From: an uncultured Hormoscilla sp. | GTDB lineage: Bacteria; Cyanobacteriota; Cyanobacteriia; Cyanobacteriales; Desertifilaceae | Direction: 5' to 3' | Assembly: GCA_963921275.4 (NCBI GenBank) | Contig: OZ001293.3 | Span: 448,001-512,000, forward strand | Length of the DNA stretch: 64,000 nt | Shown here: positions 56,997-64,000 of the stretch, piece after piece | Layout: each line of letters opens with the position of its first letter | Numbering within the stretch: the first letter of the stretch is position 1 | Translations under genes and position numbers: made by a program | The notes under the pieces: generated by a model | What the model saw: only the letters and a program-made list of their open reading frames with translations | The model's database searches: none | What the model was told of the DNA's origin: nothing

Positions 56997-57370
56997 ATGC
57001 CTACTGACATGCAGTTAAAGTGTTTGTACCGAATTGGCTATCAACTAACATATGTGATGTTTCAGCCGATTCACCTTATTTGTGTTGACGAGCGCACTCA
57101 AAATCTATTCATCCTGGCAGGTAACAACGAAGAAATTGAATTTGAAGTCACCGGGGAGGTACTGTAATGAGTAAAATTGAGTATGTGACAATGTCGGACC
57201 AGCAGTTAAGGCAATACTTTCTCGAACATCGTGACGATCTGGCGGCACTCGAAGCTTACCTCGATCGCCGCCAGATCGCGATCGACTGAAGTCATAACAA
57301 CCGCGAACGACCCCGACTTTGATGCCAAAATCATAGCTGCAATTCGTCAGCAGATGAGCGATAATATTTA
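56997..57370 (+). other. Small coupled gene pair (DUF6888/DUF6887-like); second gene frameshifted
   Basis: MPTDMQL..FQPIHL..DERT..ILAG, then TAATG overlap into MSDQQLRQYFLEHRDD. Confidence 0.55.
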
Positions 57371-57829
57371 ATCAAGCAAAAACTCAGGGTCGAGACTTTC
57401 TTCTGGGGAAAAAGTCGCCGACATTGGCAAAGTATCCAGGGGTAAACCAGTCTCTAAAGCGGCTAACTGTCTGGCATCAAAATAACATTCATCAAATACT
57501 TCCAGGAAGTAATTTTTCAGACTAGGACTATCTTGAAAGGCTTTTCTCAAGCGCCGACGATGTTCAAAAATAGTTGCCAGCCAGCTATTTGAACGTTTTT
57601 CGACCTGATATTGATACTTAAGGAGGTGCATCAATAGCACAACCAAATTGCTTTCTAGCGCCCGTCGTTCTCTTTTTCCCATATCTGTGAGTTCTTCAAT
57701 GAGATTAGCAATATCTAACTCAGCAAATTTACCTTGCTGCAACTGCTTAACCGTCCCTTGCAGCCAAAGATAGTAGTCTCGATCGTAAAGGCTGGAATGA
57801 CCAGTTGTTATGATTCGGGATACCGTCAT
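57368..57829 (-). CDS. DUF29 family protein
   Basis: LYDRDYYLW, NLIEELTDMGK, HLLKYQYQ, SPSLK. Confidence 0.9.
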   Translation of the reverse strand: MTVSRIITTGHSSLYDRDYYLWLQGTVKQLQQGKFAELDIANLIEELTDMGKRERRALESNLVVLLMHLLKYQYQVEKRSNSWLATIFEHRRRLRKAFQDSPSLKNYFLEVFDECYFDARQLAALETGLPLDTLPMSATFSPEESLDPEFLLD

Positions 57830-58003
57830 ATGTTCAACTTCTTAAGCGACCAAAGTTTGGCTACATTATAGCAGTAAAATTGGATTGGCGATCGGCTTGC
57901 CAGAAACCGGGTTGCGAAAATTAAACAAATCTTAACAAGCCCAGTTGCACGAGGTACAGATTTACGGTAGAATCAAAGAGCAGTAAATTTCAACTAAGTG
58001 GTG

Positions 58004-59117
58004 ATGGTGCGATTCGTTCAGGCGTAAACTGGCGACGGTGAAGTCTGGTCTGGTTTCATTTGCCGGATAACTCTGGTTATCATGGGGGTTAAATTCCCTC
58101 TCCCCAGGTGTGGGGGGTCGAGGGTACTACCGGTCCTTAGTGCTGCGGGGTCACATCGCCGTGGTGCTCCGCTAGGGCTTAAATGTAGGATAGCTGGCAG
58201 CCTAACCCAGTGACGCCGCTAGGAAAGATGCTCATGGTTAGAACAAGCGAACCTGTTAAAGCCTCGTTACATAGAACCAGCGGAATAAGGCTTATACGCT
58301 GGCCCAAAAGGGAAAATGGTAGTTAGTGTTGGTAGTCATCTATTGCCAGCATCGCACCCAAAGAACTCCCGGGGTATAGCAGGGGCCTACAAGCATCGAG
58401 AAATGATACCAGGGAACGAAGTAACCTCACGTGAGCTGTCCCCATTTGGACCAGTTAGATGTAAAGCGCAAGCCGCGAAGAGGAAGGATGTTCTAAGAAG
58501 CCAACGCCTGGGGTAATGCCTGGGATATGCAGACGTGGGACGGATATGGTAAGAAGCCTTTGGTGAAAGTAGCCCTAACACGTCGCAAAACTTAGGAGAA
58601 ATCCAAAAGTATGAATATGGACTAGAGTCTCAGCCGGGTCAAGTTCAGAGCCCCGATAAATTGCCAGAATGGAGAAATGTTAGAGAAGAGCGGCTAGAAT
58701 GGTTTGCTGAACTACCCTCCGCGATCGCGCAGCGTGCGCGCAGCGCATACCTTCCGGAGCTGAAATCATTAACGGTCCAATAGGATTGACCATAAGGGGT
58801 AAAATTACAGAGGGTAAGGGGAATACGGGGTAACCCAATATGTCTAAGGACAAGCCCCAGCGGTGAAAGTCACAAGTCCGGTTCCGCTCTTGGAGGGTTG
58901 GGGAGTGATTCCCAGCTCGACCCCGACCACAATCAAAGAACAAATCCTTGAGAAAATTGACCAGTTGCCAGAGTCAGCATTGCTGGAGGTATTGGAATTT
59001 GTGCGTTCTCTAAAAGCTAGGCACCAACCCCAGCTGCAGCAGAGTGATGCCTGGAAAGCTTATCTGGCTTCTAAGCAGGAAAGAAAGGAGGTATACCGTC
59101 GCCTTGCTAGTTCCTAA
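58004..59117 (+). CDS. DUF2281-like antitoxin interrupted by intron copy 3 (exons 58004-58006 and 58929-59117)
   Basis: Removing the intron gives ATG-ACA-ATC = MTIKEQILEKIDQLPESALLEVLEF. Confidence 0.75.
58007..58928 (+). mobile_element. ORF-less group II intron, copy 3
   Basis: GTGCG at 58007; EBS2 58269-58274; EBS1 58337-58342; D5 ~58852-58884; D6 to 58927/8. Confidence 0.92.
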
Positions 59118-59489
59118 GTTTATTACCTAGATGAAGTATTGGCAATTCACGCCGATCAAATTGCCAGCTTTGGGGGTACTGCGGGCATCCGCGATCGGGG
59201 TTTGCTGGAGTCGGCCTTGGCTCAACCCCAAGCTACATTTGCTGGGGAACTCCTGCACCCAACGATCTACGAGCAAGCAGCAGCCTACTTTTATCACCTG
59301 GCAATGAACCATCCCTTTATTGATGGCAACAAACGGACGGCGTTTGCGAGAATGGATGCCTTTTTGCGGATGAATGGCTATGGTCTCAATATTACCGATG
59401 ACCGGGCTTATGACCTGGTGATGCAGGTGGCCAGAGGAACTCTGAGCAAGTCGGAATTGGCCAGCTTTTTAGAGGGGGCGATCGCCTAA
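59104..59489 (+). pseudogene. doc: Death-on-curing (Doc/Fic) toxin, 1-nt frameshift near N-terminus
   Basis: GIRDRGLLESAL, NHPFIDGNKRTA; ..ATT ACC TAG ATG breaks PKFIT(L)DEV. Confidence 0.8.
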
Positions 59490-59564
59490 TTCAGGCTACA
59501 ATATAGATGGTGGTGCCCCCCGATCGCAAATCACCAGTCACCAGTTTATTTGGAGACATTCCTA

Positions 59565-60128
59565 ATGGTACAGATCGTTTCTAAACCTTTAACACTGGCA
59601 GAGTTTCTGAAGCTACCAGAAACGGAACCCGCTAGGGAGTACATTGATGAAGAGATTATCCAGAAACAAATACCGCAAGGAAAGCACAGTACAATTCAAA
59701 CAGAACTGTCCGCTACTATCAATGCAGTTCTGAAGCGTCAGCGGATAGGACGAGCTTTTTGTGAACTGCGATGTACCTTTGGCGGACGATCGATCGTTCC
59801 GGATATATCTGTGTTTGTGTGGGAAAGAATTCCTCGCGACGATCGTGGTGAAATTGCCAATGTTTTCTCCCTAGCCCCTGACTGGAATATTGAGATCCGA
59901 TCCCCCGACCAGAGTCAGACGCAAATTCTCGAAAAAATTTTGTACAGCCTGGAGTTTGAAACTCAGATGGGCTGGGCGATCGATCCTAAGGAGCAAACAT
60001 TATCAGTTTATCGTCCGCAGCAGCGTCCGGAAGTATTTGACGAATCAGCCCAGCAGCTTCCCGTGCCATTCTTTGCTAGCGATATCCAACTGACTGTGGG
60101 AGAATTATTTGGTTGGCTGTTAGCATAG
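59565..60128 (+). CDS. Uma2-family endonuclease
   Basis: LPETEPA, PQGKHS, ELRCTFGGRSIVPD, APDW.IEI.SP. Confidence 0.88.
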   Translation: MVQIVSKPLTLAEFLKLPETEPAREYIDEEIIQKQIPQGKHSTIQTELSATINAVLKRQRIGRAFCELRCTFGGRSIVPDISVFVWERIPRDDRGEIANVFSLAPDWNIEIRSPDQSQTQILEKILYSLEFETQMGWAIDPKEQTLSVYRPQQRPEVFDESAQQLPVPFFASDIQLTVGELFGWLLA

Positions 60129-60586: not shown

Positions 60587-60764
60587 GTCACGTGACTCTA
60601 TGGCAAAGTCACGCAACTTTATTGCAGAGTCACGCAACTTTATTGCAGAGTCACGCAACTTTATTGCAGAGTCACGCAACTTTATTGCAGAGTCACGCAA
60701 CTTTATTGCAGAGTCACGCGACTTTATTGCAGAGTCACGCGACTTTATTGCAGAGTCACGCGAC
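60587..60764. repeat. 21-nt tandem array (~8.5 units, GTCACGCAACTTTATTGCAGA)
   Basis: Read directly; a 12-nt repeat follows at ~60832-60870. Confidence 0.95.
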
Positions 60765-60877: not shown

Positions 60878-61543
60878 TCACGGATCGCCACTGAGTTTTT
60901 GATAGGCATTACGGGCAGCGGCCTTTTCTGCATCTTGCTTCTTTTTACCGGTACCCCTTCCATAGACCTTACCTTTGACGCAGGCCACAGCCCTAAATCT
61001 ACGTGCATGATCTGGGCCCGATTCATTCACAATTCTGTAGGTTGGCGTTATGCCAAAACGGGCGAGAATTAGTTGCTGAAACTGGCTTTTCTCATCCACG
61101 ACTTGCACAGCAATTCCATCGCCATCATTGATTATTTCTTGTATCAGGGGTTCAATAAAGCTGCGTACTCTGTCCAATCCAGAATCGAGATACAATGCAC
61201 CGATATACGCCTCAAAGGCATCGCTGAGTATGGTTTCTTTATTGCGCCTGTCTTTTTTGACACTGTGACCGAGGTACAGGCGATTTCTCAAACGAAACTG
61301 ACGGGCAAAGGTAGCCAACTGGGACTTGTCCACCAGTTTTGAGCGCAGGATTGTCATATCACCTTCGTTCATATTGGGATAGGTGCGATACAGCAGATCG
61401 CCGACGATCAAGCCAAGGACAGCATCCCCGAGAAATTCCAGCCGTTCATTATCGGGACAGTCGCGATGTTCGTTGGTGTATGATGAATGGGTCAAGGCAC
61501 GCTTGCGCAAGTTGCGATCGGTAATTTCTGGCAGTTTCATCAT
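60878..61543 (-). CDS. rnc: Ribonuclease III
   Basis: ALTHSSY, NERLEFLGDAVL, DAFEAYIGALYLD, dsRBD. Confidence 0.95.
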   Translation of the reverse strand: MMKLPEITDRNLRKRALTHSSYTNEHRDCPDNERLEFLGDAVLGLIVGDLLYRTYPNMNEGDMTILRSKLVDKSQLATFARQFRLRNRLYLGHSVKKDRRNKETILSDAFEAYIGALYLDSGLDRVRSFIEPLIQEIINDGDGIAVQVVDEKSQFQQLILARFGITPTYRIVNESGPDHARRFRAVACVKGKVYGRGTGKKKQDAEKAAARNAYQKLSGDP

Positions 61544-61695
61544 GTTCAGTGCAGGGTCATCAAAAAATCTGATACTATTTTAAGACAGGATAAGAGATTA
61601 TTGAGCATTAGACATCTTGCAAAAATTTATTTTTGCTCCGCAATAGCAATTTAGCAGCAATTTTAGCATTTCTGCAAGAGGTCTATTGGTCATTC

Positions 61696-62112
61696 TCAAG
61701 GCGATCTCAACAAAGCATTGAACCCTGCTTGGGTAAAATGTTTATCGTGGGTGAGAACATCCTTAATTTTCCGCTCCTGCATAATCAGCATAGAAGCGCA
61801 GTCGGTCAGACTGTAACCCTTGTCCATCCTTTTTTGATAGAACTCAAGTGCCTGACGGAATTGTTCGGGAGTTTGTGGGACAATTTATGTAAGGCGATCG
61901 TTTCGCAGTTCTACCGTGAGTTCGACAGCTATCCGACGGAAATAAGCTCCCCTTTCACAAAAATAGTTGAGCAACTCGGTCAGAACCATCTCACTGGTGA
62001 CCGCAGTAAAGACACCTAACTCCTGCAATAATACTTTTGTACGCTGATGTAAGTTACTGCTTCGATCGCCGATGGCAATGAGATAAGAGGTATCGAGAAA
62101 AATACGCCTCAT
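61696..62112 (-). pseudogene. PIN/VapC toxin with a single in-frame TAA (61885-61887)
   Basis: FLDTSYLIA, VLTELL; the frame continues past the stop as DKGYSLTDCAS..LTHDKHF.QAGF. Confidence 0.85.
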
Positions 62113-62789
62113 TCTTCTTTTGGTGCTCCATACATATAATGTTCAAAATTGCGAGCCAAATCCCTCGGGAGTTTAGCCCATTCTTCGTCGGGAACCCGCG
62201 CACCTATTTCCATGAGTCGTTTCCAGAGAGGTTTCTCTTCGGGCTCAAGGGAAATTATCTTACCGTTGTCAGTCTCATCAATCAGCAGGTGCTTCTCTTT
62301 CCGTGCGCTCAGGATCTCCAAGCTGGCGTCAATGTAGGCGTTAACAAGTTTAGCCGCCCAGGTCGGCAAACCCCGATCGCCTTGAAGATAATTGAGGGCC
62401 GCGATCGCCCCATCAATCGGCAAATCAAAAAAACTATAGTCGATCGCCTGCCAACTCCCGGTCGAATTCGGCTGGATACTCGTCGCCTGAGCAACTAAAC
62501 GGTATTGTAGCTGGCGCAGATAAAAGGCCACCTCACGCAGGTACTTTTCCTTGGCGTCCGGTCTACAAGCATCCTCGGGCAAAATAGATGAGGCCGCTTG
62601 CACTGCACCCTCCATCAAATTTGGGGCATTTTCAGCCAAATACTTAGCCCCAGCAAAGTAAGCCGCTGCCCGTTCCAGCCTTTGGGCAACCAGTTCCAGT
62701 TCCCGATCGTCCAGAAAACGACCTTGACCGGTAGCATCGACGATCGCTTCTCTGATTGTAGTTTCCATAGCACTTTTCCAATTCACCAT
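62109..62789 (-). CDS. Phycobiliprotein-alpha-like domain fused to antitoxin-like C-terminus
   Basis: EAIVDATGQGRFL..GAVQA..KEKYLREVAFYLRQLQY.LVA; tail VPDEEWAKLPRDLARNFEHYMYG. Confidence 0.75.
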   Translation of the reverse strand: MVNWKSAMETTIREAIVDATGQGRFLDDRELELVAQRLERAAAYFAGAKYLAENAPNLMEGAVQAASSILPEDACRPDAKEKYLREVAFYLRQLQYRLVAQATSIQPNSTGSWQAIDYSFFDLPIDGAIAALNYLQGDRGLPTWAAKLVNAYIDASLEILSARKEKHLLIDETDNGKIISLEPEEKPLWKRLMEIGARVPDEEWAKLPRDLARNFEHYMYGAPKEE

Positions 62790-62828
62790 TTGAGTCTATT
62801 ATAATCAGAAGTTTTATAAACGCGAAGT

Positions 62829-62978
62829 ATGGACGTAAAAGCAGCAGTTGATTGGTACATGGAAGGTAAAATTAACATCGATGACTTGATTACCCACGTC
62901 ATGCCGATCGACCAAATTAATGACGCCTTTGAATTAATTGCACAAAGGCGAGTCTATCCGCACCGTTTTAACATTTTA
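62829..62978 (+). pseudogene. frmA: C-terminal fragment of S-(hydroxymethyl)glutathione dehydrogenase
   Basis: VDWYMEGKINIDDLITH..INDAFEL..GESIRTV. Confidence 0.75.
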
Positions 62979-63172
62979 ACAGCACAAAGGTTCGTTGTTG
63001 TACTTCAGCGCCAAGGTTCCCAATTCCTATGTTTAGCCCCTGCGCAGCGGAGGGGGCCCGGAGCGTGGGCTTTGTCCCTGTAGCCGCACCCCTCGTTCCC
63101 ACGGCTCTGCCTGGGAACGGGTGACGGAGATCGCGAATAATTTACAGCCCTGTTATTCCCCATTAGCAAATT

Positions 63173-64000
63173 ATGTCTACATCAGTCAACATTATTTCCG
63201 AACATGCCTGTTTCGGCGGCCAAGTCAGTTTTCACAGCCATCATTCGGAGACCTGTAACTGCGAAATGCACTTTGCAGTTTATCAACCACCCCAAGCAAA
63301 ATCAAAACCAGTGCCAGTCCTCTATTTTCTCTCTGGTTTAACCTCTACAGAAGAGAACTTTATCATGAAAGCCGGGGCGCAGCGGTACGCCGCAGAACAG
63401 GGGTTAATGTTAGTTATGCCAGATACCAGTCCGCGGGATACTGGCATACAGGGTGAAAACGACGAGTGGGATCTCGGTACGGGTGCAGGCTTCTACGTTG
63501 ATGCGACAATGGCACCCTGGGCGTCCCACTATCAAATGTACAGCTATGTGGTCCGCGAATTACCTGCAATCATAGCCGAAAACTTTCCAGCGATACCGGA
63601 AAAACAGGAAATTTGCGGTCATTCTATGGGCGGACATGGGGCCTTAGTCTGTGCCTTGAGAACCCAGAACAATATCAGTCACTTTCCGCTTTCGCCCCGA
63701 TCGCGGCACCGATGCGCAGTGATTTGGGACAGAAGGTATTTACCAATTACCTGGGTACCAAGCAGGAAACCTGGCGGGTTTACGATGCCAGCGAATTAAT
63801 CCTTACGGCTAAATATAGTCGTCCCATTCTGATCGATCAAGGAACGGCGGATGAATATCTCCCCCAACTGCTACCAGAAGTATTTTCCGAAGCTTGTCAA
63901 AAGGTCGGTCAACCCCTAACCTTACGCATGCAAGCAGGTTACGACCACGGCTACTACTTTGTCTCCACCTTCGTCGCAGACCACATCCGCCACCATGCTG
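63173..64000 (+). pseudogene. fghA: S-formylglutathione hydrolase, frameshift at ~63660; runs off the window
   Basis: LSGLTS, PDTSPR, GAGFYVDA, GHSMGGHGAL; then SAFAPI and GYDHGYYF in another frame. Confidence 0.85.

Follow-up and report, generated by a model that had tools for sequence, protein, structure and literature searches.

What can a phycobiliprotein-like domain do when it is fused to a peptide of the antitoxin type and its gene is coupled to that of a ribonuclease toxin? The question is raised by a two-gene locus on the reverse strand of a 64,000-nucleotide stretch of DNA, called here the window, from an uncultured Hormoscilla sp. (assembly GCA_963921275.4, contig OZ001293.3, positions 448,001 to 512,000). 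The usual head of a VapB-type antitoxin is a small domain that dimerises and binds DNA. The fusion protein encoded at this locus is probably the antitoxin of a type II VapBC-like cassette in which a pigment-less head derived from C-phycocyanin alpha replaces that domain. A first-pass annotation, made from the letters alone, had proposed a phycobiliprotein-like domain fused to an antitoxin and coupled to a PIN toxin, and had read the pair as a decoy sensor of phycobilisome turnover. The domain of phycobiliprotein fold, its fusion to an antitoxin-type tail and the coupling to a PIN gene stand, and the tail is predicted by structural modelling to bind the PIN domain; the decoy is an unlikely addition to this scheme.

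The family of the N-terminal head is defined by several comparisons. Pfam PF00502 matches residues 15–156 (E 1.7e-12; 48 bits against a cut-off of 22.2). A phmmer search of the PDB aligns residues 8–161 with residues 1–162 of C-phycocyanin alpha (E 2.8e-19), and the first 33 rows of its table are all alpha chains of C- or R-phycocyanin. The top Foldseek matches of an AlphaFold2 model of the fusion are likewise all C-phycocyanin alpha (E ~2e-6, 30–36% identity, target-normalised template modelling (TM) score ~0.6). This model is all-helical up to residue 173, with three short helices in the tail, and its predicted local distance difference test (pLDDT) value is below 50 at residues 169–186; the length and sequence of the linker differ among homologues. 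Identity to CpcA is 33–36% over CpcA residues 1–162, and the head has the globin-like fold of phycobiliproteins with its N-terminal pair of helices. The head is nevertheless not a true CpcA, since it scores only 68.4 bits with TIGR01338, the NCBIfam model of C-phycocyanin alpha, far under the equivalog cut-off of 269.45. In alignments with PDB chains and with CpcA of the same genome, Tyr83 of the 226-residue frame takes the place of the bilin-binding Cys84, and the preceding loop is 8 residues shorter than in CpcA. Both the phycocyanin-alpha-like domain and the exchange of its bilin cysteine for tyrosine, as claimed by the first-pass annotation, are thus borne out. No DNA-binding family of Pfam or NCBIfam matches the head.

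The ordinary phycobiliprotein genes, including cpcBA, are complete elsewhere in the same genome, which also has two nblA genes. The fusion gene lies outside the cpc operon, with RNase III, PIN and esterase genes as neighbours. A mis-assembled cpcA was considered as its source and is ruled out by the true cpcA elsewhere in the genome and by the recurrence of the fusion at 13 loci. Two more divergent PF00502 genes of this genome, both without the tail, are found at L050:977–1483 and L051:938–1399; the one coding for 168 residues adjoins a phycobilisome-linker-like gene, and the one coding for 153 residues stands between V4R-domain genes.

The C-terminal tail (last ~42 residues) is nearly invariant among the 12 fusion homologues found by sequence search, even at an overall identity of ~40%. 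The closest named homologues come from Hormoscilla metagenome-assembled genomes (MAGs; 92–95% identity) and are annotated from M8. The true start of the fusion in the window may also be M8 (62768), giving 219 residues, because database relatives and the CpcA alignment begin there. A search among shorter proteins returned 12 matches, ten of them stand-alone proteins of 64–90 residues with the tail and two of them fragments of fusions. The tail profile (A2), built from 16 tails, was compared with 1.84 billion representatives and found 2124 protein clusters at E ≤ 1e-3, 353 of them at E ≤ 1e-10. Tail-bearing proteins are mostly 55–150 residues long, and the tail is usually the C-terminal end of small antitoxin-like proteins. 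A Pfam scan for head domains in the best 150 of the 2124 tail-bearing representatives identified PF00502 in 12 and no family in 127. Above the cut-off it also matched PhdYeFM (1), AF2212-like (2), AbrB-like (1), HTH_17 (1) and DUF2188 (1); below it were a second PhdYeFM, ParD/ribbon-helix-helix (RHH), NikA-like and DUF2281 domains, with a NACHT fragment just under. The tail itself and the small tail proteins match no Pfam or NCBIfam family, the only signal being a chance-like rhamnosidase domain (E 0.02–0.08).

Matches to the tail profile are found at E ≤ 1e-5 in 44 of 401 sampled Cyanobacteriota genomes (32 of 156 genera) and at E ≤ 1e-10 in 75 of 401 genomes of the order. A PIN gene of the same subfamily lies directly downstream of the tail gene at 16 of 20 genome loci (11 full length, 5 broken or fused) and adjoins it at 51 of 69 metagenome loci. 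As judged by these profile matches, the tail goes together with a single PIN subfamily in diverse cyanobacteria and, outside them, in metagenomes of other habitats, in agreement with its initial description as similar to small proteins encoded upstream of PIN toxins. The genome under study has a second pair of this kind (L049:1073–1824; G000:C1, ~1.576 Mb), in which the gene for a 110-residue protein ending ...LPTDGAEQHDHYIYGTPKRKQ overlaps that of an intact 140-residue PIN of the same subfamily. Tandem copies of tail-bearing antitoxin genes precede a single PIN gene at the small-protein loci L059, L061 and L063 and at the Hormoscilla fusion loci L001–L003, an arrangement that may indicate a heterodimeric antitoxin.

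The tail is also found at the end of much larger proteins. Three-gene units at L151:7516–11554 and L152:6830–10877 code for a MAD2-like methyltransferase (617 and 628 bits, cut-off 720), a MAD5/HsdS-like S subunit of 554–557 residues that ends with the tail, and a PIN protein of 138–140 residues. Tail-bearing frames of 554–559 residues occur in five sampled genomes (L151, L152, G380, G648, G494), the gene order having been examined in two. The unit has the look of a methylation-associated defence system whose PIN effector is tethered via the tail. Proteins of 304–313 residues with the tail at their end form a further set (P0071, P0073, P0086, P0138, P0141); P0071 (313 residues), the sole member scanned against PADLOC, matches the candidate defence protein PDC-M32A (E 3e-42).

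To model binding of the tail to the toxin, a 48-residue tail (A2) was co-folded with the PIN of an orthologue whose gene is intact (A4, in which the first row is that of L001). The interaction prediction scores from aligned errors (ipSAE) were 0.82, 0.81 and 0.82, versus 0.01 for the best control. In a benchmark, 116 of 157 solved complexes and 2 of 215 mismatched pairs attain the co-fold mark, a calibration that is only rough here owing to the custom alignments used. The runs share at least 98% of contacts, with a partner pLDDT of at least 82. The PIN residues contacted (8–22, 46, 99, 101 and 122–125) flank the catalytic acids D7, E46 and D123. In the predicted complex the tail wraps the PIN domain and reaches its catalytic pocket, which would amount to neutralisation in VapB style.

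The cassette may accordingly be pictured as follows. The conserved C-terminal peptide is predicted to neutralise the PIN RNase by covering its active site. The phycobiliprotein head would stand where ordinary proteins of the tail family have a dimerising head that binds DNA and, most plausibly, would supply oligomerisation through a pairing surface of the alpha/beta type. A route or handle for proteolysis may be a further contribution of the head, a role proposed because unassembled apo-phycobiliproteins are unstable protease substrates in cyanobacteria. The antitoxin level would then track the turnover of phycobiliproteins in the cell and not DNA-bound autoregulation.

Table 1. Features of the fusion–PIN locus in the window.
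Feature	Position	Strand	Basis
Fusion (antitoxin) gene, 226 residues from the first ATG	62109..62789	(-)	Open reading frame (ORF) list, homologues
Phycocyanin-alpha-like domain, residues 8–161	62307..62768	(-)	PF00502, PDB CpcA, Foldseek, CpcA alignment, tree
Linker, residues 162–184, low complexity, predicted disordered	62238..62306	(-)	AlphaFold2 pLDDT, dN/dS, variability in homologues
C-terminal PIN-binding tail (binding predicted), residues 185–226: PLWKRLMEIGARVPDEEWAKLPRDLARNFEHYMYGAPKEE	62112..62237	(-)	Conservation, profile search, co-fold
ATGA overlap of fusion stop and PIN start codon	62109..62112	(-)	ORF coordinates
VapC-type PIN toxin pseudogene, 138 codons	61696..62112	(-)	One in-frame stop; PF01850
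Nonsense codon TAA, PIN codon 76 (GAA in orthologues)	61885..61887	(-)	DNA alignment with L001, L003

The same gene pair is found well beyond the window. The fusion is present in all four other sampled genomes of the genus, and 13 distinct fusion loci are known, with the PIN gene intact in 7, broken in 4, cut by a contig end in 1 and lacking in 1 (Table 2). The antitoxin gene is immediately upstream of the PIN gene in 12 of the 13. The 4-base overlap of the fusion stop with the toxin ATG, already seen in the first-pass annotation, couples the two genes translationally; it recurs in L001, L006, L075, L144, L145 and L149, and the coupling of the fusion to an intact PIN gene, which that annotation expected to be sought in other genomes, is found at seven of the loci. 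The tree shows that the window retains the copy-1 type of the tandem pair and L004 the copy-2 type, which suggests, on sequence grounds, a two-copy ancestor with separate losses that left a single copy in each.

Table 2. Fusion loci, with the number of fusion copies and the state of the PIN gene.
Locus	Source	Fusion copies	PIN gene
Window	Own genome	One	Broken, TAA at codon 76
L001	Named Hormoscilla MAG	Two, tandem	Intact
L002	Named Hormoscilla MAG	Two, tandem	Frameshifted
L003	Named Hormoscilla MAG	Two, tandem, first broken	Intact
L004	Named Hormoscilla MAG	One	Ends at 106 residues
L005	Microseira	One	None
L006	UBA11372	One	Intact
L064	G246	One	Internal deletion
L149	G680	One	Intact
L144	G684	One	Intact
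L145	G637	One	Intact
L075	Metagenome	One	Intact
L076	Metagenome	One	Cut by contig end

The heads have two origins. By their NCBIfam matches some fusions are alpha-like, such as P0031 (CpcA model, 150 bits), and others beta-like, such as P0047 (CpeB, 121 bits; CpcB, 102 bits). In a tree that included the eleven antenna proteins of the own genome, alpha-like fusions group with its CpcA (support 100/98), while beta-like fusions form one clade (99/97) within the CpcB/CpeB group (99/97). Two long-branch paralogues that are not fusions fall among the alpha-like set, a placement that is unsure. Because alpha-like and beta-like fusions group apart, a head of phycobiliprotein type was joined to the tail and its PIN subfamily on at least two occasions. 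Of the alpha-like members, 4 of 13 (P0031, P0036, L144, L145) still have the bilin cysteine, as do 2 of 7 beta-like members (P0047, L075), which makes 6 of 20 overall. Database labels of the fusion relatives read 'phycocyanin alpha chain', 'phycocyanin beta chain' or 'hypothetical'. A scan of viral contigs with the fusion alignment gave 245 pattern matches, none confirmed as a relative, and the ESM Atlas search returned no usable match.

Five fusion contexts (L144, L145, L146, L149 and the window) have as neighbours a major facilitator superfamily (MFS) transporter, RuvA, sucrose-phosphatase, UvrA, a DEAD helicase and RNase III. The two-gene unit behaves as a mobile cassette, since these neighbours are unrelated. 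Ratios of non-synonymous to synonymous substitution rates (dN/dS) for close and moderately distant pairs are 0.22–0.58 in the phycobiliprotein domain, 0–0.39 in the tail and 0.4–3.6 in the linker, the counts being small for the closest pairs; the values for the domain indicate that the head is maintained and is not a passive spacer. One metagenome locus (L075:1062–4028) has the order HEAT-repeat PBS-lyase-like gene, CpeS-type bilin lyase gene (E 2e-35), beta-like fusion gene and intact PIN gene. Its fusion keeps Cys82/Arg/Asp and is the sole one with a lyase gene beside it, and this locus hints that some members of the family may carry bilin. Linkage to phycobilisome or lyase genes was rejected as a family feature: only L075 shows it, and the other contexts scanned are unrelated.

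The toxin gene of the window is broken. When its frame is read through with X at the stop, PF01850 matches over the full length (E 1.9e-10). The frame has one in-frame stop after 75 codons, the single nonsense mutation listed by the first-pass annotation, and then runs on to its normal end; the change is a single G>T relative to the orthologues, which are of 138 residues when intact. Residues D7, E46, D104 and D123 are invariant across 17 aligned PIN sequences, and the truncation removes D104 and D123. The TAA region is identical in contigs from X2 and X4, two samples of one study of which X2 is possibly the source of the assembly; the X4 contig has 0 differences from window positions 61600–62217. 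Contigs of a further run, X5, cover the PIN gene as well. These comparisons with sequencing runs concern assembled contigs only and have no bearing on expression. Contigs from a metatranscriptome library (X12) hold a ~90%-alike relative of both genes over window positions 61600–62900, with a joint that shows the tandem two-copy form; they hint only weakly that a relative expresses the genes, DNA carry-over being possible. As read from these frames, the cassette of the window no longer works as a toxin–antitoxin pair, and only its antitoxin frame survives. When toxin–antitoxin systems decay, the toxin is usually lost before the antitoxin. Just upstream of the fusion gene lies a short dehydrogenase-like ORF fragment (62829–63083), and at 63173–63999 the sequence of an esterase (PF00756) is divided between two frames that overlap; both look like pseudogenes, which matches gene decay around the cassette.

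This state of the locus leads to the alternative that survives best, namely that nothing functional is left in this genome, with the toxin dead and the antitoxin frame not yet decayed. It is possible, though we do not expect it. Besides the loss of two catalytic residues and the broken look of the nearby genes, the absence here of the second tandem antitoxin copy of relatives agrees with it, as does a dN/dS of 0.55 between the window and copy 1 of L001, a value that comes from only 9 non-synonymous and 5 synonymous changes. The tail, however, has no amino-acid change relative to copy 1 of L001 or L002, four of the five genomes of the genus have an unbroken frame for the PIN-adjoining copy, and the relative in the RNA-library contigs adds its faint hint to the same side.

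Antitoxins act through regulated proteolysis, and it was proposed at the outset that the head is bait. Degradation of the antenna by NblA and ClpC-ClpP, whether under nitrogen or sulphur starvation or by cyanophage NblA, would destroy the antitoxin and free the PIN RNase, leading to arrest or abortive infection. We regard this decoy or guard as unlikely. The separate recruitment of alpha-type and beta-type heads argues for a role specific to phycobiliproteins and not for that of any dimeriser; purifying selection on the head, the two nblA genes of the genome and the presence of the tail on defence-type proteins (the MAD5-like S subunit beside a MAD2-like methylase, and the PDC-M32A-like protein) also fit. 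NblA serves as an adaptor for proteolysis, binding both ClpC and subunits of the phycobilisome, and several cyanophage families carry it (PMC12695635). A lone alpha-like domain without the cysteine may, however, not present the needed site. The scan of viral contigs confirmed no relative, PADLOC has no match for the fusion, its PIN or a small tail protein, and the surroundings of the cassette differ from locus to locus, with housekeeping genes predominating; in the window, Fic/DOC, Uma2 and DUF29 genes are among the neighbours. In addition, three of the five genomes of the genus have a decayed PIN gene, and selection for defence is therefore weak there. If the decoy were real, bleaching would carry growth arrest or abortive infection as a built-in consequence, and the recruitment of alpha-type and beta-type heads would be a convergent evolution of baits for the same adaptor.

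It is more doubtful still that the head captures an antenna partner, an alpha-like head pairing with CpcB and a beta-like head with CpcA, such that the complex is tethered to the rods or the antitoxin is titrated and antenna assembly is reported. N-terminal helices mediate alpha–beta pairing in phycocyanin, and the N-terminal part of the fusion is among its most CpcA-like regions (50% identity over residues 1–20 versus 33% overall); the regional differences in identity are nonetheless small, inconsistent across members and not decisive for a retained pairing surface. Alpha-like and beta-like fusions never occur together in one searched genome, so that neither type needs a fused partner, while the two tandem alpha-like paralogues of the Hormoscilla loci fit self-pairing equally well. 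The members that keep the bilin cysteine would suit this idea; most members lack it. Likewise, the beta-like fusion just downstream of a CpeS-type lyase gene is a single case, with no such adjacency in the five other contexts. The least likely alternative, in which the tail is a general docking or inhibitory peptide, PIN a regulated effector of larger assemblies and the phycobiliprotein-like part a scaffold with a function of its own, draws on the S-subunit-like and PDC-M32A-like tail proteins and on the intact fusion frames beside broken PIN genes (window, L002, L004, L064), but most tail proteins are small and some have classic antitoxin domains, the gene order, 4-base overlap and variable context match type II toxin–antitoxin cassettes, and survival of the antitoxin is what decay of such a pair usually leaves.

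The VapBC-like cassette with a phycocyanin-derived antitoxin head is thus the reading that we prefer, and several points weigh against it. Tail loci without PIN number 4 of 20 in genomes and, despite room for the gene, 14 of 69 in metagenomes (4 more had no room), counts obtained with a PIN profile from only 4 sequences that may miss divergent PINs; the fusion locus of Microseira has no PIN either. On very large proteins, such as the S subunit and the PDC-M32A-like protein, the tail may be a docking peptide and not a labile antitoxin. The AlphaFold2 model of the fusion is only moderate (mean pLDDT 71.5, predicted TM score 0.60, from 12 sequences). Solved VapBC complexes exist, so that likeness to them may explain part of the co-fold score, and the co-fold, as a model, supports tail–PIN binding short of proof. 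A scan of positions 61500–63000 for promoters, operators and terminators gave counts no higher than in shuffled sequences. The oligomerising and proteolytic-handle roles of the head are ones that we infer.

The region beyond the RNase III gene holds small accessory genes (57368–60128): DUF29 (57368–57829), Fic/DOC (59139–59489) and a Uma2 putative endonuclease (59550–60128). Between the RNase III and Uma2 genes, a 21-bp unit is repeated 8.3 times (96% matches) at 60587–60761; all three forward frames and one reverse frame are open throughout this repeat.

The trigger of chromosomal toxin–antitoxin systems is a long-standing question. Here an antitoxin head was swapped, at least twice independently, for a domain from the most abundant substrate of regulated proteolysis in cyanobacteria, and this swap gives a testable hypothesis for the trigger: antenna turnover, host or phage NblA, or the availability of bilin or of a partner subunit. 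The C-terminal module, predicted to bind PIN, is large (2124 clusters) and is carried by antitoxin, phycobiliprotein and defence-type proteins; a hidden Markov model for it would improve annotation. Fusion relatives labelled as phycocyanin alpha or beta chain could mislead surveys of pigment genes, and the present analysis corrects these labels.

No phycobiliprotein–antitoxin fusion is described in the literature searched, including the TASmania paper (subscription journals and supplements were outside the scope of the search). What is new in this type II PIN toxin–antitoxin pair is its antitoxin head, which is without precedent, together with a C-terminal module for which no model exists in Pfam or NCBIfam. 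It resembles VapBC systems such as VapBC10 and VapBC15 of Synechocystis in a PIN protein with four acidic residues, a coupled upstream antitoxin gene and a C-terminus predicted to lie over the active site. It differs from them in that its head has a phycobiliprotein fold and is not of AbrB, RHH, PhdYeFM or helix-turn-helix (HTH) type, with no evident DNA-binding domain, and in that its tail has no antitoxin model. With CpcA (TIGR01338/PF00502) the fusion shares residues 1–162, aligned full length, the same predicted fold and an adjacent position in the tree; it is set apart by the change of Cys84 to Tyr, the loss of 8 residues in the loop, a sub-equivalog score, a location outside the cpc operon and a C-terminal extension of 65 residues.

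Folds of phycobiliprotein or globin type are known outside the antenna from the allophycocyanin-like Apl proteins and from the non-haem globin sensor domain of RsbR. The head of the fusion is a further use of the phycobiliprotein fold outside the antenna, and we know of no protein of the Apl or RsbR type that has an antitoxin tail attached or a gene coupled to that of a PIN protein. CapRel(SJ46) detects a phage capsid protein through its fused antitoxin domain, and the EcoprrI restriction complex keeps PrrC silent. Both are comparable to the present cassette in that the neutralising part is also the target of an invader or of stress, sensing by the head being a hypothesis only. The parallel with PrrC–EcoprrI may extend, by analogy, to the three-gene units, where the tail is carried by an S subunit of restriction type.

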